Notes under the pieces: model-generated
The model's database searches: none
What the model was told of the DNA's origin: nothing
The model's input: only the letters and a program-made list of their open reading frames with translations
Assembly (NCBI GenBank): GCA_947649365.1
Contig: CANSRH010000003.1
Coordinates: 12,036 to 76,035 of the forward strand
Length of the DNA: 64,000 nt
Reading direction: 5' to 3'
DNA from: an uncultured Mycoplasmatota bacterium
Lineage (GTDB): Bacteria; Bacillota_I; Bacilli_A; RF39; UBA660
Part shown: positions 12,594 to 35,450 of the stretch, piece by piece
How the letters are laid out: every line of letters begins with the position of its first letter
How positions within the stretch are numbered: position 1 is the stretch's first letter
Made by a program: the position numbers and the translations under genes

Positions 12594-13799
12594 CTATTTT
12601 CTTTCTTTTTCTTCTGGTTTGTCAATATTTTTATCGTACGATATATCGCTGATTTGATAAGTTCGATTTTTAGAAATGAAACTTAATAATGAGGTGGATC
12701 CCCAACCGAGTACTGCTAATATAAAGAAGTAGATGACTCCAAACATTGTAAATTTTGGTTCTGATTTGGTGAGTAAGCTTATTATACTTGCTCCTGCACT
12801 CATGCTGGTTACTATAGTCAAACTATTGATAGATTTGCTTGTAACATCCGATTTTAAACCATTGAATAGTTTTTGAGCAGAAGTGACATAAGTTTGGGTC
12901 ATATCCCATAAATACTTAATGTAATCAAGTGTATCTTTTAAAGTTTCAAAACGGTATCCAGAGATAGCTAAGAATTCTGTAAGTTCTGCATCATTTTTAG
13001 CAATTCGTTCTCGAGTTCCAATATAGGTTCCCATTTGGTTGATTCTTCCATCAATTAAATTGATTGTTTTCGCGTATCCTTCTAGTTTTCCATTGAATTT
13101 AACAATGTCTGCTCCTTTTACATTTGCTTGTTCTTTAACACGATCAATTTTCTCCCATATTACACGATGCAAATTCAAATAACGATGAAGTTGTCCTTTG
13201 AATTCACGTATAAAAATTTGTTCTTCAATGTATTTTTCAATTTTGTCTAAAGATTGTTTTTTGTTGTTGATAAAATAATATTTGTCTCCTCTTACTACAT
13301 CGTATTTCGGATTACTAAATTCAAAATATTTTTGTTTTTCTGTACGAGATAATAAAACCGATATATCGTCTTTGGTTACATTGTCACAAATGATAAAATA
13401 CGGATATACGGTTTCAATATTGGCAAGCTCTTTTGGCACAGGAGCTCCTAGACTAAATAAATAGGATAAGGCTGGTGATAGTTTATTTTCATAATAGTCT
13501 GTGACTTTATCAATGTCTGCAAACAAAGTATCTTCAGACACTTTACGATTGTTTAAGGAAATCAGTCCGTCTTCGTAAATTTTTACAGCAATGTCAAAAG
13601 CCGTAGTGAATTCGATATACTCTTCTCCTGAAACGCCATAGACAATTTTTCCTATTCCTAAATTTTTATGAAGTTCGTCTAGTTTTTCTTGTTCTAAGCC
13701 CAACTTAGAAGATTTTGCTCTTAAAAAATCATAGATTTCTGTAAGTTGCAACATGGTTCTTTGAAACCATCCACCGATATAAACATTTGTTATTTTCAT
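12594..13799 (-). CDS. hypothetical membrane protein (two C-terminal TM helices)
   Basis: 401 aa soluble domain followed by two hydrophobic helices; family not recognised. Confidence 0.4.
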   Translation of the reverse strand: MKITNVYIGGWFQRTMLQLTEIYDFLRAKSSKLGLEQEKLDELHKNLGIGKIVYGVSGEEYIEFTTAFDIAVKIYEDGLISLNNRKVSEDTLFADIDKVTDYYENKLSPALSYLFSLGAPVPKELANIETVYPYFIICDNVTKDDISVLLSRTEKQKYFEFSNPKYDVVRGDKYYFINNKKQSLDKIEKYIEEQIFIREFKGQLHRYLNLHRVIWEKIDRVKEQANVKGADIVKFNGKLEGYAKTINLIDGRINQMGTYIGTRERIAKNDAELTEFLAISGYRFETLKDTLDYIKYLWDMTQTYVTSAQKLFNGLKSDVTSKSINSLTIVTSMSAGASIISLLTKSEPKFTMFGVIYFFILAVLGWGSTSLLSFISKNRTYQISDISYDKNIDKPEEKERK

Positions 13800-15669: not shown

Positions 15670-16062
15670 TTAAAAATTTATAGTAAACCAAAAAAAGATG
15701 CTTTCGCTTGGAATAGAACCTTTAAATACATACTTTCCACTTCCAAGTTTCGCCACAAAAAAGTTCGCGGTATCTTGGTATATACTTTCATTTAAATAAA
15801 TATCTAATGGACCACTGGATTCTTCATACGATGTATCTAAATATATTTCACTCTCTATGATATTTTTATTTATTTTGGTAGGTTTTTCACTCAATTTTTG
15901 TAAGTCTTCATTGTTATAATGAATCATAAATGAAAAAGATATGGTATTGAATAAATCATCCATTCCACTGATTGTGAAATTAATAAGTGGTATATATACT
16001 TCACCTAGTCTTTTCCCATCTTTGTATGTAACATTCATTATTGAATCAAAATAATATTCCAA
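15670..16062 (-). CDS. hypothetical protein
   Basis: 130-aa ORF, no family recognised. Confidence 0.35.
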   Translation of the reverse strand: MEYYFDSIMNVTYKDGKRLGEVYIPLINFTISGMDDLFNTISFSFMIHYNNEDLQKLSEKPTKINKNIIESEIYLDTSYEESSGPLDIYLNESIYQDTANFFVAKLGSGKYVFKGSIPSESIFFWFTINF

Positions 16063-17292: not shown

Positions 17293-19665
17293 TTACATTT
17301 TTTTATTTTCAAAGTTTTCTGTATTATTATAGTAATTAATATTTTGAGCAAATTGTAAATTAGCTTGTTCTTTCATAATTTCAATATAATCTTTCTTATT
17401 TTTAATAGCTATTTGATACATAGTTTGTTCTAATTCATATTCTTCTACTTTTCTACATTCCTCTGCAGTTAGAGACCAACTTGATATATCTTTCAGTCTT
17501 TTTTGTTCTTCACTTATTGCTCTTTTCTTTTCTTCATAATATGCTATTTCTGCAAATGCTCTTACTACATCTTGTTGGATTTGAGTAGTTGCTCTCGTTC
17601 TATTATTTATTACGTATTCTTGTTTTGCTTTTTCTCCTCGTAATTCTATTCTTTTACTTACTATTTGTAGTAGTACTTGTCTATAATCTTTTTCTTCTAG
17701 TTTTTTTTCTAATTCTTCTTGTTCCTTTTTTAATCCTTCCAATTCTCCGTTAACTTCGTTTCTTCTTCTTTCTTCTTCTGTTTTTGGTTGTTTTCTACTA
17801 TTTATATATTCCTCTTGTGTTTGTTTGTTTAAAAGACTAGCATATTTCTTTTCTGATATTTTTAACATTTTTGTTAAATCATCTTGTTCTAATTCATATT
17901 CTTCTACTTTTCTACATTCCTCTTCAGTTAGAGACCAACTTGATATACCTTCCAGTCTTTCTTGCTCTTCACTTATTGCTCTTTTCTTTTCTTCATAATA
18001 TGCTATTTCTGCAAATGTTCTCACTACATCTTGTTGGATTTGAGTAGTTACTCTTGTTCTATTATTTATTACGTATTCTAGTTTTGCTTTTTCTCCTCGT
18101 AATTCTATTCTTTCACTTTCTATTTGTAGTAGTACTTGTCTATAATCTTTTTCTTCTAGTTTTTTTTCTAATTCTTCTTGTTCCTTTTTTAATCCTTCCA
18201 ATTCTCCGTTAACTTCGTTTCTTCTTCTTTCTTCTTCTGTTTTTGGTTGTTTTCTACTATTTATATATTCCTCTTGTGTTTGTTTGTTTAAAAGACTAGC
18301 ATATTTCTTTTCTGATATTTTTAACATTTTTGTTAAATCATCTTGTTCTAATTCATATTCTTCTACTTTTTTATCTTCTTCTGCAGTACTTACCCAAAAT
18401 GATATATTTTTCAGTCTTTTTTGTTCTTCGCTTATTGCTCTTTTCTTTTCTTCATAATATGCTATTTCTGCACATATTCTCACTATATCTTTCTGGATTT
18501 GAATAGTTGCTCTTGTTCTATTATTTATTATGTATTCTAGTTTTGCTTTTTCTCCTCGTAATTCTATTCTTGCACTATATAATTTTATTTTTTCATTAGA
18601 ATCTTCCGAATTGTTAATTTTTATATTTATATTATCTATTCGTTCATTAATATATTTTAAAAATACATTATTTTTTTTTAATTCTTCAAAATCAAACGGT
18701 GTTGATTGTACTAGATTATTGATAATTAATTTATATTGTTGCAAGTATTGTATAGCATCAAATTCATTGTATTCGCATGCATCTGATTTGTATTTATCTA
18801 TCTTTTCTGTATGATTCTTTGCTTTTATCAGCAATAGTTCTAATTTTTTTTGATAGGTAATTGCATCATTTATTTTATTTTCAAAAACCATTATTAACAT
18901 ATTATTGAATTCTTGCTTTAACAATTCTACTTGTTCTTGTTCGGAAATACAAAATTTTCTTATTTCCTCTATTTTTAATTGCTTTTCTACAAATTGTTTG
19001 GCTTCTACAATGTTTTTTGGAATTTCACTTATTTGACTTTGTATTTTTGCAATTATTTGTTCTAACTCCTCTAATTCTAGTTGCATAGATAACTTTTGTG
19101 CTTCTTTGTGTAAAACTTTAAATTTATTTACATGCACTTTTAATAAATTTATAAGAATCTCATAGTTTTTTTTGTATAATTCTTCATTTAAAATATCACT
19201 ATAAGCTTTTAAAACTAGATTATCAATTGCCTCAGATACTTTCTCATCAATTTGAAAAGAATTTTTCTTTTCCATTGCAAATGCTTCCTTAATAGCTTTT
19301 TTTCTAGTAGCTTCCATTTCTTCATTTGAATAATTATTGAAATTAGGAGAAGTTGTACTTTTTTTCTCTTCTTTTTTTTGGTTATTTATTTCATTATTTG
19401 TATTTGTGGTTGTATTCAATCTTTTTTTATATTCTAAATCGTATTTTTCTCTTTTTACTGGGTTTGATAAAATTTCATATGCTACATTTATTTCTACAAT
19501 TTTTTTTGGATAAACTTCTTCAAATCCCGGATGTACGTCCGGATGAAACTCTTGTACTAATTTCCGATATGTTGACTTAATTTTTTTAATATCGCTATCA
19601 TATGAAATTCCTAATAATTTGTAGTAGTCACACCACTTGATTTCCCATGATTCTTTTACTTTCAT
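17293..19665 (-). CDS. J-domain (DnaJ-like, HPD) protein with long coiled-coil and about 2.5 tandem 153-aa repeats
   Basis: N-terminus DYYKLLGISYDSDIKKIKSTYRKLVQEFHPDVHPG...AYEILSNPVKREKYD is a canonical J domain; remainder Lys/Glu-rich heptad-like; GGGGGA RBS; 29 bp downstream of the vWA gene. Confidence 0.75.
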   Translation of the reverse strand: MKVKESWEIKWCDYYKLLGISYDSDIKKIKSTYRKLVQEFHPDVHPGFEEVYPKKIVEINVAYEILSNPVKREKYDLEYKKRLNTTTNTNNEINNQKKEEKKSTTSPNFNNYSNEEMEATRKKAIKEAFAMEKKNSFQIDEKVSEAIDNLVLKAYSDILNEELYKKNYEILINLLKVHVNKFKVLHKEAQKLSMQLELEELEQIIAKIQSQISEIPKNIVEAKQFVEKQLKIEEIRKFCISEQEQVELLKQEFNNMLIMVFENKINDAITYQKKLELLLIKAKNHTEKIDKYKSDACEYNEFDAIQYLQQYKLIINNLVQSTPFDFEELKKNNVFLKYINERIDNINIKINNSEDSNEKIKLYSARIELRGEKAKLEYIINNRTRATIQIQKDIVRICAEIAYYEEKKRAISEEQKRLKNISFWVSTAEEDKKVEEYELEQDDLTKMLKISEKKYASLLNKQTQEEYINSRKQPKTEEERRRNEVNGELEGLKKEQEELEKKLEEKDYRQVLLQIESERIELRGEKAKLEYVINNRTRVTTQIQQDVVRTFAEIAYYEEKKRAISEEQERLEGISSWSLTEEECRKVEEYELEQDDLTKMLKISEKKYASLLNKQTQEEYINSRKQPKTEEERRRNEVNGELEGLKKEQEELEKKLEEKDYRQVLLQIVSKRIELRGEKAKQEYVINNRTRATTQIQQDVVRAFAEIAYYEEKKRAISEEQKRLKDISSWSLTAEECRKVEEYELEQTMYQIAIKNKKDYIEIMKEQANLQFAQNINYYNNTENFENKKM
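17425..18590. repeat. intragenic tandem repeat, period 459 bp (153 codons), about 2.5 copies
   Basis: landmark taattcatat recurs at 17431, 17890, 18349; copies about 95% identical, with a roughly 230-bp stretch apparently identical between copies A and B. Confidence 0.9.
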
Positions 19666-19694
19666 ACGATTTCCCCCTTATATAGCTTCCCTTT

Positions 19695-20531
19695 TTATTT
19701 TTTGTTTAATCTTAATGTAGTATCATCATCTGTTAGATTTGGCGTATTTTCTTTTCCAGTCGTTAATAAATAATGAGCATCAATTTTCTTACTCCAATCG
19801 TTTGTAACTTTTCCATTTAATCTTAATTGTTTAATTACTTCATTTGCTGCATCAATTACTAATTGAACTCCATCCATATCTTTGCTAAAATTTCTAGCTC
19901 GATTTTTCGGAATTCCTATTTTTGTTGCTAACTTTATCGCTTCAATTCCTTCAGCAAGTAAGAAAAATTCTCTTCCTTTTGCTAATTGGCTTTCAATAAG
20001 CGTTTTTAATTTTTCTGCAGCACCATATTTACTTTCATTATCTTCACCATCTGTTTCCATCAAGAAAAATACTTTTTCATTTGCATTTGGATATTTGGCG
20101 TCGAAATTGTTAATTTCCTCAATGGCAGTGTCATATAGTCTTGTATATCCAGATGTGTATATTGATATAGGTTTTGCATCTTTTGCTAATATATCGTTGT
20201 GTTCTTTTTTTGCAATACTATTAAATAAAACAGTTGTTATTCGAACATTGTAATTTTTTTGTTCATCTAACAATTTAACAATTGCTTGTTCGGTGGCAAG
20301 TTCTGTACCAGCCATAGACTGACTAATATCTAGTAACAGAATTGCATGCACTACTTGGCGCATTTCTGATGCAACAGTATCAATGTTTTCATAAACCATA
20401 GCATCGATATTTCCTAGTACATCTGTATAATCAATACTATCCGCTAAATCTGCTAAAGATGTATCTTCACTTAATGTAAGACTATTCTTATCTTGTATTT
20501 TCATATTTTCCAATTTCTCACTTAAATTCAT
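19695..20531 (-). CDS. von Willebrand factor A (vWA) domain protein, cytoplasmic
   Basis: MIDAS DxSxS (DISQSMAG) after a beta-strand (HAILLL), later ETDGEDNES (TDG-type motif); no signal peptide; GGGGAG RBS 6 nt before ATG. Confidence 0.7.
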   Translation of the reverse strand: MNLSEKLENMKIQDKNSLTLSEDTSLADLADSIDYTDVLGNIDAMVYENIDTVASEMRQVVHAILLLDISQSMAGTELATEQAIVKLLDEQKNYNVRITTVLFNSIAKKEHNDILAKDAKPISIYTSGYTRLYDTAIEEINNFDAKYPNANEKVFFLMETDGEDNESKYGAAEKLKTLIESQLAKGREFFLLAEGIEAIKLATKIGIPKNRARNFSKDMDGVQLVIDAANEVIKQLRLNGKVTNDWSKKIDAHYLLTTGKENTPNLTDDDTTLRLNKK

Positions 20532-20565
20532 AAAATTCTCCCCTTTGCTTTAAGTAATGTTTTTT

Positions 20566-20595
20566 ATTATAACCCCCCCCCCGACTTTTTGTCAA
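20566..20595 (-). promoter_or_regulatory. sigma-A-type promoter with homopolymeric G10 tract in the -35/-10 spacer (candidate phase-variation switch) for the vWA/J-domain operon
   Basis: minus strand reads TTGACA-aaaagtc-GGGGGGGGGG-t-TATAAT (18-nt spacer), then GGGGAG RBS and ATG at 20531. Confidence 0.6.
20573..20582. repeat. homopolymeric C10/G10 tract
   Basis: only G/C homopolymer longer than 5 nt noted in this AT-rich window. Confidence 0.95.
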
Positions 20596-20726
20596 ATTAC
20601 AAATTATGATGATTGTCAATAGATAATCAAAAAAAGAGACATGTCAAAAAAATTTTAGTGAAAAACTAAAATAAATAACCAATAAAGAAAAACTTTATTG
20701 CTAGAAATAGTATGAATTTTTATTTT

Positions 20727-20771
20727 GTTAGTCAAGGTTAAAAGAACTCACGATGTTCGCCCTTGACTAAC
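20727..20771. repeat. perfect 11-bp inverted repeat GTTAGTCAAGG-N23-CCTTGACTAAC
   Basis: seen directly; followed by T-run on the plus strand; lies between the phase-variable promoter and the upstream gene's terminator. Confidence 0.8.
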
Positions 20772-20890
20772 TTTTTATAAATTAAAAATCTATAAAATTC
20801 TCTAGCTTTTTTACTAAGTATTTTTCTGGTACTCCTCATATTTTTTAAAATAGATTATCGCTCACATACTAAACTTATTTACAAAAGAAA

Positions 20891-20919
20891 AGACTGTTGA
20901 CTTTATTTGTCAACAGTCT
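20891..20919 (-). terminator. rho-independent terminator of the thioredoxin-like gene
   Basis: AGACTGTTGAC-tttattt-GTCAACAGTCT, T-rich on minus strand. Confidence 0.6.
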
Positions 20920-20936
20920 AAAGAAATAGGTGTTCC

Positions 20937-21620
20937 CTATTTCTTTTTATTATTTTTTGTATTTGAATTTTTATTTTCTTCTTTTTTTGTTTCTTTTTGT
21001 ACTTTTCCAAGTAATTCTTCTATTTTTCTTTGAGTTTCTTGATGTTTTACATTAACAAATGCTAATATTATTCCTGTACCAATTGTAATGAATACAAAAT
21101 TCCAAATTATGCTTGTTGAACTACTTCCCCCAGTTGTTTTTTTCTCTTCCTTTTTCATTTCGTTCATAACATCGAACTTGTCTTTGCTATCGTATTGCTC
21201 TTTGATTGCACTTTTTATTTGCTCATTATAGTTTTCTGTATAACCTACAAATGTTTTATCTCCAATGACAATAAATGGTACACCGCCTACACTTTCGTCT
21301 AAAAAGTTGGCTACTTTTTTCATTAATTTAGAATTATCAGAATTGTTCCATATTTCATAAGCTTGTAATTTGAAATACTCTCCATATTCAGGAACGATAC
21401 TTGCTAAATATTCTAGAAATTTATGACAATATCCACATGTTTCTCCCATAAATAAATAAATGGTTGTTTGTTTGTCACTTTCTTTGTAATTTTTCAAATC
21501 TGCTTCTATATTTACAGCTTTTAGCGTTTCTTCTAAATTTGTTGCTTTTTCAGCAGCACGTATTTGGAATGGACATAACATAACGATTAATAATGCTATA
21601 CCAATGATTTTCTTTTTCAT
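20937..21620 (-). CDS. thioredoxin-fold protein with CGYC active-site motif, signal peptide and C-terminal TM anchor
   Basis: FMGETCGYCHKFL; N-terminal signal, C-terminal hydrophobic helix, Lys-rich tail. Confidence 0.45.
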   Translation of the reverse strand: MKKKIIGIALLIVMLCPFQIRAAEKATNLEETLKAVNIEADLKNYKESDKQTTIYLFMGETCGYCHKFLEYLASIVPEYGEYFKLQAYEIWNNSDNSKLMKKVANFLDESVGGVPFIVIGDKTFVGYTENYNEQIKSAIKEQYDSKDKFDVMNEMKKEEKKTTGGSSSTSIIWNFVFITIGTGIILAFVNVKHQETQRKIEELLGKVQKETKKEENKNSNTKNNKKK

Positions 21621-22979: not shown

Positions 22980-24032
22980 TTAACTAAATTTTTCAATATC
23001 ATCAATATTTGCAGCGAAATAAGGTAACTCTTTCTCTTTTTCTTTTAAAAATAAGACAAAGTCTTTGTCAAAATGAAATTTACGTTGGAATGTATCCTGT
23101 GATGTAATTGAGTTTTTTGCATGCATACCAGCTTCACTTTTTAGTTTTCCACCTTGTTCGTTAAGGTCAAAAGATATCGTTTGCAATGCTTTTTCAATCC
23201 AATATTCTTCTCCGTTTGCAAAAGTAAAGATTTTCTTTTCTAATTCTGTAAATTCGTTTTTTAATTTTATATTTAAGTAAGGCACTTTTAAGGTATCACC
23301 TTTGGTAAATGCTTTTGTTTCTGTTTTACTTTTTTCTTCTACTTCATCCCATATTTCTTTAAAGTTCGTTTTTTCTGCTCCTCGAAGAAGTATGATTTCT
23401 TCGTCTTCTTGCGTTTTTAACAAGATGGCAAATTCGTTTTCATTGTTATAATAAAGAACATTTACTTGGTTATATGTTTCTTCATTTGTACTATTATCGA
23501 TTCCAAAATATTTTACATTTTTTGTGTTTTTAAAGTTTCCTTTTTCTAGTTTTGTAAAGACTTTTGGAAATTGAAATTCCTTTTTCAACATGGTATATAA
23601 AAAGTAATCTTCTGTTTTTCCTTCTGTCCATTCAAAATCGTCTAAAATGGTACTGGTTTCGTTCCATTTCTTTTTTATTTCTTCTTCAATTTCTTTTTTT
23701 AAGTCTAGTGTTGCTAGTCCATATTTTTTTATATAACTACTTTCTTTTAAATTGTCTTTCGTAAAGGTTCCTTTGTTTAAATTTTCTATGCTTTGTGTTT
23801 GTGGATGGAATACTATTTCTTGTTTGACAATTTCTTCTTTTAAATCATTCCATAGCAAGTTGAATGTTCCACACCAAATGGAATTTTTTGTAATGTTGTC
23901 TTCTAATGAAAGTACTACATCGATGTCACTTGGATGATATTCCTGTTTTTTTATTTCTTTGAATGTATAAGCTCCTATTACCATTACCAATAAAAGTGCT
24001 CCTAGAATTGGTTTGATTCTTTCTTTTTTCAT
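22980..24032 (-). CDS. hypothetical secreted protein
   Basis: signal peptide then Lys/Glu-rich 330-aa domain. Confidence 0.45.
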   Translation of the reverse strand: MKKERIKPILGALLLVMVIGAYTFKEIKKQEYHPSDIDVVLSLEDNITKNSIWCGTFNLLWNDLKEEIVKQEIVFHPQTQSIENLNKGTFTKDNLKESSYIKKYGLATLDLKKEIEEEIKKKWNETSTILDDFEWTEGKTEDYFLYTMLKKEFQFPKVFTKLEKGNFKNTKNVKYFGIDNSTNEETYNQVNVLYYNNENEFAILLKTQEDEEIILLRGAEKTNFKEIWDEVEEKSKTETKAFTKGDTLKVPYLNIKLKNEFTELEKKIFTFANGEEYWIEKALQTISFDLNEQGGKLKSEAGMHAKNSITSQDTFQRKFHFDKDFVLFLKEKEKELPYFAANIDDIEKFS

Positions 24033-33329: not shown

Positions 33330-35450
33330 TTATTTTTTTACTGCTCTCTCTCGTATGATACCTTTATTCAAAATTTCTTGGTCCTTTTCACTTAGTAAAT
33401 CGCGATTTTTAAATAAATCTTCATGAATGACTTCTCCTCTTTTATGAACACCATAGACATTACCGCGAGGTGTGAGTTGAAGTTCTGCTTTGAAATTTTT
33501 CTCAGTTGGGCTTCTAAATTCGATAAAATCATGTTTTATTTTTTCTTCTCCATAACAATTTTCATTGTAAGGCATATAAAGTGTATCACAAAAAGCTTGT
33601 AAGGCTGTATTAAATATTTGTTCATACGCTTTACTTTTTGGCTGTGTATACTTTTGATAAGTTTTATAATAATAAACAGCAAATTGGCCTGGCTCTATAA
33701 ATTGCAAATAAGGATTTTTTCCTACCAATGCATATTTCGTATCGGTGATACGATTAAAAAAGGTCGAAGTGACACCACAACAATCGTCATAAGTCCCATC
33801 TGATTCTGCTGCTACTCCTCCAACTGTGTCATAAAGTTCTTGTATAGAACCCATTTCATAATGCTCAATAATATAATCTATTTTTACTTCATTTATTTTT
33901 TTATACAATGCTAAAAGTCTTTGCTCGTCTATTGTTAACTCTTTTTCTTTCTTTTTATATAAATTTGTAAATTCATGAACATCCGTTATTTCGTAATAAT
34001 CTAAAATATATTTTTCTTTTTCCGTTACAGTTGGAAAATCTAATACTTCCCAAAAAATATTTAATTTTGTTTCTTCTGCTATCTTGGTATTCAATATGTA
34101 ATTTATTTTGTCTTTTCTTGTTGTTACATGAAAGGCAGATTGGTAAGAGAGAAATGCTTCTATAAATTCTTCTTCCCTTACTAATTTACTTTCAAGTAAT
34201 GTATTGAATAAGGTTTCAAATGGTACAATATCTGCTTTTATAATGCTTTCTATTATTTGCGTTACTGACTTATGGTTCGTCGTTATCAAATCTTGAAAAA
34301 TAATTGAAAATGGTACATCTTTTATTAATAAAGTAGACCATATTTTTTGGTCAAAATTCAAACTTTTTTCATTGAAAATAAAAGAAAATTTTTCTTGGTA
34401 AGTATGCTTGGAATTTACAATGTATTCTATACTTTCGGAAGGTTTTAATCCAGCATCCTTTAAAAGATATTGAAAGTTTATTTGATAGGCTATTCTATTG
34501 GAATTTGCTATTGCCTTCATTTTGGGTTCTTGTGGTATTTTCTTATTTTCTATTAAATAATTATATATCGTTCTAAAGTCTACCAAATCAGAATGAATTA
34601 TTGCATTTATTTTGTATTCATAAGAACTATCTGGAATTTCTAAAACAGCATCAAATGTATTTTTGTAGTTGGTTGCATTTAAATCTAGTAGTTGTCTTAT
34701 TTTTTCTTCTGAAGATAGTCTTTTATTGTTACTTATCTTTTCAAATTGTACTTCGTAACTTTCTACTTCTAGTATTTCTTCGTTTCCAAAAAAATCTTCT
34801 ATTGTTTCAAAAGTGCTTTCTATATCTTCTTGAATCCATTCCATACACTCAGAAATATGCATTCCTAATGTTTTTGCATGTTCTTTTATTCCACCCATAT
34901 TTAAAAATATGTTTAAGGAAATTGTAAGACATAAAGAAATAAACCCAGTGGATATTAATTGGTTTTTATATGAATTTTCTAGTATCGGTGCTTTTCTAGC
35001 AAAGTTTTGTATTCTATTTTCTTTTTCTTTCCTGTCTAGTTGTTCTGCTAATTCTAAAATCATTACAATCCATTGTTTTTTTGAACGGAAAGAAACTATT
35101 TCTGTTTGATTTGGTGCTTCATATAACATAAGTTCCATTTTTTGCATTAGCTCATTAGCAATCATTTCTTCTATAGGAGAAATGATTTTCTTTGCTTCTT
35201 GCATCACTTCTTGTTGTTTTTTTATATACTCTATTTTTTTCTCCGTTTGGTTTGTTTTTTCACATGCTTTTTTCTCTTTTTTTAGTTCCACATATTGTCT
35301 TGCTAAATTGTCGAGAGCTGGTCCATATAGTTTCCCTATATGGTATAAAGAAATAAGCACTGTCTTTAGTACTATATTTGCATTATTCATTGATTCATAG
35401 TTGTTTTGCTTTCTCATAAAAATACTCCCCTTAAAAATCGCCTTGTCCAT
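33330..35450 (-). CDS. large hypothetical protein (706 aa) with one internal hydrophobic segment
   Basis: no family recognised; Cys-containing C-terminal region (DDCCGVTS...). Confidence 0.45.
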   Translation of the reverse strand: MDKAIFKGSIFMRKQNNYESMNNANIVLKTVLISLYHIGKLYGPALDNLARQYVELKKEKKACEKTNQTEKKIEYIKKQQEVMQEAKKIISPIEEMIANELMQKMELMLYEAPNQTEIVSFRSKKQWIVMILELAEQLDRKEKENRIQNFARKAPILENSYKNQLISTGFISLCLTISLNIFLNMGGIKEHAKTLGMHISECMEWIQEDIESTFETIEDFFGNEEILEVESYEVQFEKISNNKRLSSEEKIRQLLDLNATNYKNTFDAVLEIPDSSYEYKINAIIHSDLVDFRTIYNYLIENKKIPQEPKMKAIANSNRIAYQINFQYLLKDAGLKPSESIEYIVNSKHTYQEKFSFIFNEKSLNFDQKIWSTLLIKDVPFSIIFQDLITTNHKSVTQIIESIIKADIVPFETLFNTLLESKLVREEEFIEAFLSYQSAFHVTTRKDKINYILNTKIAEETKLNIFWEVLDFPTVTEKEKYILDYYEITDVHEFTNLYKKKEKELTIDEQRLLALYKKINEVKIDYIIEHYEMGSIQELYDTVGGVAAESDGTYDDCCGVTSTFFNRITDTKYALVGKNPYLQFIEPGQFAVYYYKTYQKYTQPKSKAYEQIFNTALQAFCDTLYMPYNENCYGEEKIKHDFIEFRSPTEKNFKAELQLTPRGNVYGVHKRGEVIHEDLFKNRDLLSEKDQEILNKGIIRERAVKK

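Follow-up and report, generated by a model that had tools for sequence, protein, structure and literature searches.

Comparison with described promoter-spacer systems

In Neisseria meningitidis, homopolymers situated between the -10 and -35 elements of porA, fetA and opc control transcription (PMC2791445). A tract of ten consecutive G residues (G10) occupies the same place in the predicted promoter of a two-gene operon on contig CANSRH010000003.1 of an uncultured Mycoplasmatota bacterium. The operon encodes a vWA-fold protein (gene 1) and a J-domain coiled-coil protein (gene 2), and was analysed within a stretch of 64,000 nucleotides of that contig (hereafter, the window). As in the meningococcal genes, the G/C tract lies wholly in the spacer, where slippage in N. 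meningitidis generates high, medium or low transcription (PMC2791445), and its length of G10–11 is comparable to the ~9–14 residues of porA, opc and fetA. The meningococcal genes differ in that their products are surface antigens in the outer membrane of a Gram-negative pathogen and that their switching has been measured, whereas the present locus belongs to an uncultured, low-GC gut member of the Bacilli, and both the cytoplasmic location of its products and its switching are predictions.

Insertions and deletions in the spacer switch transcription on and off for vlp of Mycoplasma hyorhinis, maa2 of M. arthritidis and vmm of M. mycoides (PMC2268961). Their hosts are low-GC relatives of the Bacilli, and these are the phylogenetically nearest precedents. 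The tracts of vlp, maa2 and vmm are A, T or TA repeats ahead of surface lipoprotein genes, whereas the tract described here is poly-G, in a genome of 29% GC, and stands ahead of the vWA/J-domain operon. An example from within the Bacilli is the intergenic homopolymer of Spy1336/R28-Spy1337 in Streptococcus pyogenes M28, which is accompanied by a polymorphic tandem repeat in the coding sequence (PMC7098570); the pairing of a promoter tract with a coding repeat is found here as well, the latter being a repeat of 459 bp. The streptococcal case differs in that a T tract between divergent genes acts via a regulator and a surface protein and lies outside a defined -35/-10 spacer. The promoter T-tract of M. 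agalactiae vpma was found by experiment to have no role in variation (PMC2268961), and this homopolymer, too, is placed directly upstream of the -10 element of a single promoter.

An initial annotation of the window had proposed the tract as a phase-variation switch, with porA, opc, nadA and vlp among its examples. Spacer control at porA, opc and vlp fits the comparison. The nadA gene is an example of the wrong kind, as its repeat is TAAA and distal to the promoter, with no homopolymer in the spacer (PMC2791445).

For the products of the operon, the described systems that come closest are those of the MoxR-vWA type, whose vWA domain is regarded as a co-chaperone that binds peptides (PMC7159879). 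In both cases a gene for a vWA domain with a metal-ion-dependent adhesion site (MIDAS) adjoins a component of a chaperone system. The partner here is, however, a J-domain (Hsp70 co-chaperone) coiled-coil protein. No gene for a MoxR-like AAA+ ATPase is adjacent to the vWA gene, and for want of such a neighbour an assignment to the MoxR-vWA systems was rejected. A two-gene vWA/J-domain module is not among the systems described in PMC7159879.

A predicted consensus promoter with a poly-G tract in its spacer

The minus strand, read across the promoter, the tract and the start of gene 1, is GTAATTTGACAAAAAGTCGGGGGGGGGGTTATAATAAAAAACATTACTTAAAGCAAAGGGGAGAATTTTATG. Its parts are given below.

20595-20590, minus strand: -35 hexamer TTGACA, 6/6 to consensus (TTGACA or TTGCAA is also present in the related loci L004, L006, L007 and L008)
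20589-20583, minus strand: non-repetitive left part of the spacer, AAAAGTC
20582-20573, minus strand: poly-G tract, G10, entirely within the -35/-10 spacer
20572, minus strand: single T between G10 and the -10 hexamer
20571-20566, minus strand: -10 hexamer TATAAT, 6/6 to consensus, preceded by GGT and so without a TGn extended -10
20532-20559, minus strand: predicted transcript start and short, unstructured 5' untranslated region (5'UTR)
20543-20538, minus strand: ribosome-binding site GGGGAG within the 5'UTR, followed by AATTTT
20531-20529, minus strand: ATG of gene 1

A consensus scan scored the promoter at 12/12 with a spacer of 18 nt, and the best other promoter-like site between positions 16000 and 22500 reached at most 10/12. 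The anatomy proposed in the initial annotation is exact in every element, the 18-nt spacer included. A perfect match to TTGACA-N(14-21)-TATAAT occurs at this one place on the two strands of the window, against an expectation of 0.10 per window calculated from hexamer frequencies with spacers of 16-18 nt.

The C10/G10 run is the sole G/C homopolymer of at least 6 residues in the window, which has a GC content of 29.1%; the runner-up measures 5, in keeping with the earlier description of the tract as the only long G/C homopolymer present. A first-order model predicts 0.0013 G/C runs of at least 10 per window, equivalent to ~0.05 in 2.5 Mb. Throughout ~100 kb of DNA from the clade, all G/C runs of at least 6 fall at this promoter position, bar a single case that is evident poly-C junk at a contig end. 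The coincidence of a perfect promoter with a long G-run is not a matter of chance.

The RNA fold of the 5'UTR amounts to 0 kcal/mol. A census of spacers among the promoter-like sites of the window found 17 and 18 nt barely enriched over background in this AT-rich DNA, and was uninformative. Upstream of the tract there is one further candidate site:

20630-20603, minus strand: weak second promoter-like site TTGATT-16-CATAAT, 9/12, lineage-specific

Tract length across assemblies and lineages

The 278-amino-acid product of gene 1 is encoded identically on three further ENA metagenome contigs, which come from different samples and were all that a repeated look-up gave:

L001, ERZ14425208: identical vWA protein, G11
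L002, ERZ14425194: identical vWA protein, G11
L003, ERZ14425199: identical vWA protein, G11

The one-base indel in the tract is the sole difference between the window and L003 over 1675 bp. L001 differs from the window at 13 positions, comprising the indel, 11 mismatches confined to the terminal 60 nt of the contig, and one base of the tandem repeat, while the 28 mismatches between L002 and the window are without exception inside the tandem repeat. Across ~2.6 kb of unique sequence the tract indel is the only change, a pattern characteristic of a site with a far higher mutation rate than its surroundings.

In a sister lineage, P0002 (83% protein identity), represented by L004 and L005 from two Logan runs, G7 is found at the homologous site, and its right flank, TTAT, is common to this lineage and the window. 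The comparison of tract lengths suggested in the initial annotation thus returned G10 for the window, G11 for three assemblies in which the sequence is the same at strain level, and G7 for the sister lineage. In each of three independent contigs (window, L001 and L003) the tract lies away from the contig ends and is correctly flanked to its left and right. Because G7 occupies the homologous place in the sister lineage, the tract is judged by this sequence comparison to be genuine and inherited, with a length that changed in evolution; together with its internal position in the three contigs, this excludes the concern that it might be an assembly artefact. Among JGI metagenome contigs, nothing was returned either by a protein-family scan or by an exact DNA scan with the 5'UTR.

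Metagenome assemblies misbehave at this G-tract. C-rich or poly-C junk is joined to real sequence in L002 (positions 1-103) and in L001 (positions 1-60, at window 21144-21198), and junk of this type at contig ends is typical of poly-G artefact reads.

Promoters of orthologues and remote relatives

The family is tiny, with seven clusters among 5.8 billion proteins. The GTDB representative genomes contain one relative, which is tract-free and belongs to a metagenome-assembled genome of an uncultured member of the Bacilli from wild mice. The promoters of three tract-free orthologues are as follows:

L006: TTGACA-17-TAGTAT, extended -10 TGA, 34 nt from the end of the -10 to the ATG
L007: TTGCAA-17-TAACAT, extended -10 TGT, 34 nt from the end of the -10 to the ATG
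L008: TTGACA-17-TATTAT, extended -10 TGA, 30 nt from the end of the -10 to the ATG

The distance of 34 nt is common to the window, L006, L007 and the aligned TAATAT hexamer of L004. In L004, the G7 locus, TTGACA is separated by 14 nt from the homologous TGn-TAATAT and by 17 nt from a shifted TATAAA (~2114-2150); swapping its G7 for G10 would bring the spacer to the homologous -10 back to 17 nt. Relatives without a tract have spacers mostly of 17 nt, and the promoters of the remote relatives L013-L016 (28-30% identity) are ordinary ones that have a TGn extended -10 and lack a repeat.

Homology between the window and L004 begins at the -35 hexamer. The contexts beyond it differ, with a thioredoxin-like gene in the window, DUF1848 in L004 and recO in L009. 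TTGACA/TATAAT is predicted to be the promoter of the vWA gene, a prediction with good comparative support.

All lineages share a conserved block, CATTAyTTAAA...AGGGGAG, which starts at about the predicted +1. At the DNA level CATTAyTTAAA is conserved in L004, L006, L007, L008 and L010, for which the proteins are 61-83% identical. The block may be an operator or reflect a constraint on the initial transcribed sequence.

Proposed mechanism and competing explanations

The reading that we favour, with a probability of roughly 0.58, is that of a housekeeping-sigma promoter with a spacing set by the hypermutable poly-G tract, such that slippage would act as an expression dial. A polymerase of the sigma-A/sigma-70 type would read TTGACA/TATAAT, with the poly-G setting the distance between the hexamers, and replication slippage (slipped-strand mispairing) would add or remove single G residues. 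The optimal spacer of sigma-70/sigma-A promoters is 17 ± 1 nt. G9 would give a spacer of 17 nt, the same as in the tract-free L006, L007 and L008, and is predicted to be the strongest state; G10, as in the window, gives 18 nt and is predicted to be active but sub-optimal; G11, as in the three other assemblies, gives 19 nt and is predicted to be weak or off. This ranking draws on the 17 ± 1 nt optimum and on the 17-nt spacers of the tract-free orthologues.

The window lineage has lost the TGn extended -10 that is present in all tract-free relatives. Because of this loss, activity should hinge on the alignment of the -35 and -10 hexamers, making the length of the spacer decisive, and perfect hexamers without an extended -10 would give such a dial its widest dynamic range. 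We infer slippage as the cause of the length differences, its reversibility, the transcription start and the relation of length to expression.

Several points weigh against a dial. The tract lengths in the four assemblies of this strain are 10 and 11 only, and the G11 contigs L001-L003 have a coverage of ~4x (cov 4.3-4.6 in the contig names). The assembly of sample ERZ14425194 breaks in the tract: L011, an extra contig obtained by look-up of the upstream gene, terminates there in G8, and L002 begins with poly-C junk fused to G11. The break is compatible with mixed lengths, and equally with artefacts. Three of the four assemblies have the predicted-poor 19-nt spacer, a pattern that simple attenuation could explain equally well, and the site at 20630-20603, if active, could drive transcription independently of the tract. 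The products are predicted to be intracellular, and a selective rationale is not evident. By analogy with vpma, the anatomy of a homopolymer in a promoter would by itself be no proof of switching. The proposal of a phase-variation switch is thus upheld in part: the anatomy, the comparative support for the promoter and the length polymorphism speak for it, while the difference between 10 and 11 comes from assemblies of ~4x coverage.

It is conceivable, if unlikely, that promoter and tract are both real and that the G-run has expanded in this lineage as a neutral or mildly deleterious change, which weakens a very strong promoter and drifts slowly in length between populations instead of switching reversibly at high frequency. 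The confinement of the tract to a small clade, with other relatives keeping fixed promoters mostly of 17 nt, would agree with such an expansion, as would the predicted weak state of the three G11 assemblies, the predicted cytoplasmic products, which are unlike those of typical contingency genes, and the precedent of a non-switching promoter tract in vpma (PMC2268961). A run of G10–11, however, is expected ~0.05 times per 2.5 Mb and yet is located inside the spacer of the only perfect promoter of the window. Moreover, an indel that is the sole difference in ~2.6 kb bears the mark of a fast-mutating site, and perfect hexamers combined with the loss of TGn maximise the sensitivity to spacing.

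We consider it improbable that the difference between 10 and 11 is technical, with one true length obscured by Illumina homopolymer error, low coverage or the assembler. The low coverage of L001-L003 and the origin of all G11 contigs in a single ENA assembly series would allow for such an error, and the junk beside the tract in L002 and the end of L011 within it show poly-G artefact reads and graph breaks at this site. Three separately assembled samples nevertheless concur on 11, such an error cannot account for the G7 of the sister lineage, which was seen in two runs, and the unique flanks are correct around the tract in three contigs.

That the G-run acts other than by spacing, as a regulator site, as an unusual DNA structure with an effect on promoter melting, or as part of a longer 5'UTR or antisense RNA started at neighbouring promoters, is very hard to credit: the weak promoter-like site upstream of the tract, a hairpin at 20727-20771 that could end an antisense transcript spanning the tract, and the recurrence of TTGACA-like boxes (20595, 20617 and 20646) would favour it, but the region matches no Rfam family, a single G-run is well established to be incapable of forming an intramolecular quadruplex, the window holds no partner C-run, and the G7 lineage retains the tract-in-spacer layout but not the upstream region.

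The vWA-fold and J-domain proteins

The two genes and the repeat within the second are located as follows:

19695-20531, minus strand: gene 1, a 278-amino-acid vWA-fold protein, assigned by fold and MIDAS motif
17293-19665, minus strand: gene 2, a 790-amino-acid J-domain coiled-coil protein, starting 29 nt after gene 1
17425-18576, minus strand: 459-bp tandem repeat within gene 2, 2.5 copies with 94% identity

The gene 1 product has no direct Pfam or NCBIfam match. A search of the PDB by sequence profile returned no meaningful match, and a search by fold was therefore needed. In the AlphaFold2 model the core (residues 60-235) has pLDDT values of ~80-90, and the N- and C-terminal tails are disordered. 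The top matches of the model to PDB entries in Foldseek were vWA domains, with E values of 1e-9 to 1e-7, and the 50 best fold matches were nearly all vWA or integrin I domains with probability 1.0. All relatives down to 27% identity retain the MIDAS residues D68-x-S70-x-S72, T130 and D161 unchanged. A profile search gave 5507 relatives of the protein, and some remote ones pass the Pfam VWA model PF00092 (26.9 and 25.2 bits against a cut-off of 23.8); membership via Pfam is transitive, because these remote relatives pass the model and the gene 1 product does not. At the level of the modelled structure the gene 1 product is confirmed as a vWA-fold MIDAS protein, so that the vWA label given to it earlier is borne out by fold and motif, though without a Pfam match.

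The J-domain of the gene 2 product spans residues 13-76 (PF00226, 65.8 bits against a cut-off of 27.8, E 3.7e-18) and has the HPD tripeptide at residue 41, the Pfam match and the motif both agreeing with its earlier designation. It is followed by ~700 residues of coiled coil. The possibility that gene 2 encodes the orthologue of DnaJ was rejected, as TIGR02349 scored 68.6 against a cut-off of 377.

Signal peptides and hydrophobic segments are absent from both products, and the gene 1 product has no transmembrane segment, the maximal 19-residue hydropathy values being 1.27 and 0.51, respectively, compared to 2.25 for a membrane-anchored neighbour. Both proteins are predicted from hydropathy to be cytoplasmic, consistent with their initial description.

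The 459-bp repeat encodes three units of ~153 amino acids of the J-domain coiled-coil protein. The first repeat unit of L002 has variants of the second unit of the window, and the contigs L001 and L002 both terminate inside the repeat. These differences suggest variation in units or copy number between samples, or else collapse in assembly, and the repeat is potentially a second unstable element of the operon.

By analogy with vWA proteins that serve as co-chaperones and bind peptides (PMC7159879), the vWA protein would bind a client or a partner, and DnaK would be recruited by the J-domain protein. More tentatively, and as a possibility to which we give less than an even chance, the tract may be a genuine contingency locus that stochastically dials an undescribed intracellular module of a vWA/MIDAS protein and a DnaK-recruiting J-domain protein. 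If so, repeat-driven phase variation, known from surface antigens and restriction systems, would also operate on a chaperone-linked cytoplasmic system; the module would be costly or conditionally harmful, for example in phage conflict or a developmental decision; and the operon would gain size variation from the 459-bp coding repeat as well.

Promoter-spacer phase variation has so far been documented mostly for pathogens and surface molecules. If confirmed, the locus would be a clean case, found by metagenomics, in an uncultured (wild) mouse gut commensal, and it would mark the vWA/J-domain pair as under fluctuating selection, which would provide a handle on the role of the pair. The mechanism itself is textbook, and the gain would consist of breadth and a lead on an uncharacterised operon, with no new principle. 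Unusual features are the host, an uncultured gut member of the Bacilli, the conserved and undescribed module, predicted to be cytoplasmic, and a further, potentially unstable repeat that the operon contains.

The operon as a unit and its surroundings

The pair of vWA and J-domain genes is kept at every locus with enough sequence. In remote relatives it comprises a 287-amino-acid vWA protein with a 515-amino-acid DnaJ-domain protein, and a 320-amino-acid vWA protein with a 704-amino-acid DnaJ-domain protein. The module, vWA gene first, extends over 5001-7417 in L013, 5001-8077 in L016 and 17293-20531 in the window, and is conserved down to 28-30% protein identity in differing genomic contexts. 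There is no family-specific Pfam or NCBIfam model for it, and no description in the literature searched. Two terminators flank the operon:

17233-17209, minus strand: AT-rich hairpin with a T-run after gene 2, the likely operon terminator
20919-20891, minus strand: intrinsic terminator of the upstream thioredoxin-like gene, with an 11-bp stem followed by TTTCTTTT

The hairpin at 17233-17209 was missed by the terminator scan, because the scan needs three G-C pairs. The terminator at 20919-20891 is predicted to insulate the operon from read-through. Since terminators flank them and the upstream contexts differ, the promoter and the two genes form a self-contained unit. Neighbouring genes encode a thioredoxin-like protein, an acyltransferase and a PAP2-DAGK fusion.

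A role as a defence system was not supported, the single PADLOC match being a weak one to PDC-M38B (E 0.004). The viral contigs searched contained no relative of the protein, and there is thus no sign of a phage origin. A riboswitch or leader was dropped as a candidate after Rfam scans of 20400-21000, at the gathering threshold and at permissive settings, gave no credible family; the whole window is without a tRNA, rRNA or Rfam match. A 17-nt direct repeat linking the start-codon region to 20786-20802 was judged to be due to chance.

The hairpin at 20727-20771 is a strong one, with an 11-bp stem and a z-score of ~-4.8 on both strands, and has a T-run on the plus strand only. It resembles the terminator of a plus-strand (antisense) transcript, which would run through the vWA start codon and the tract. 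A promoter-like site on the plus strand, scoring 10/12, lies at 20404-20431.

Elsewhere in the window, three open reading frames on the minus strand had no Pfam family at the thresholds used: 12594-13799 (401 amino acids), 22980-24032 (350 amino acids) and 33330-35450 (706 amino acids). Nearly all open reading frames of at least 150 amino acids are on the minus strand, and among runs of length 6 the plus strand has 209 of T and 66 of A. The window represents a chromosomal region of strong co-orientation, whose housekeeping genes include those for PriA, transketolase and a U32 peptidase.

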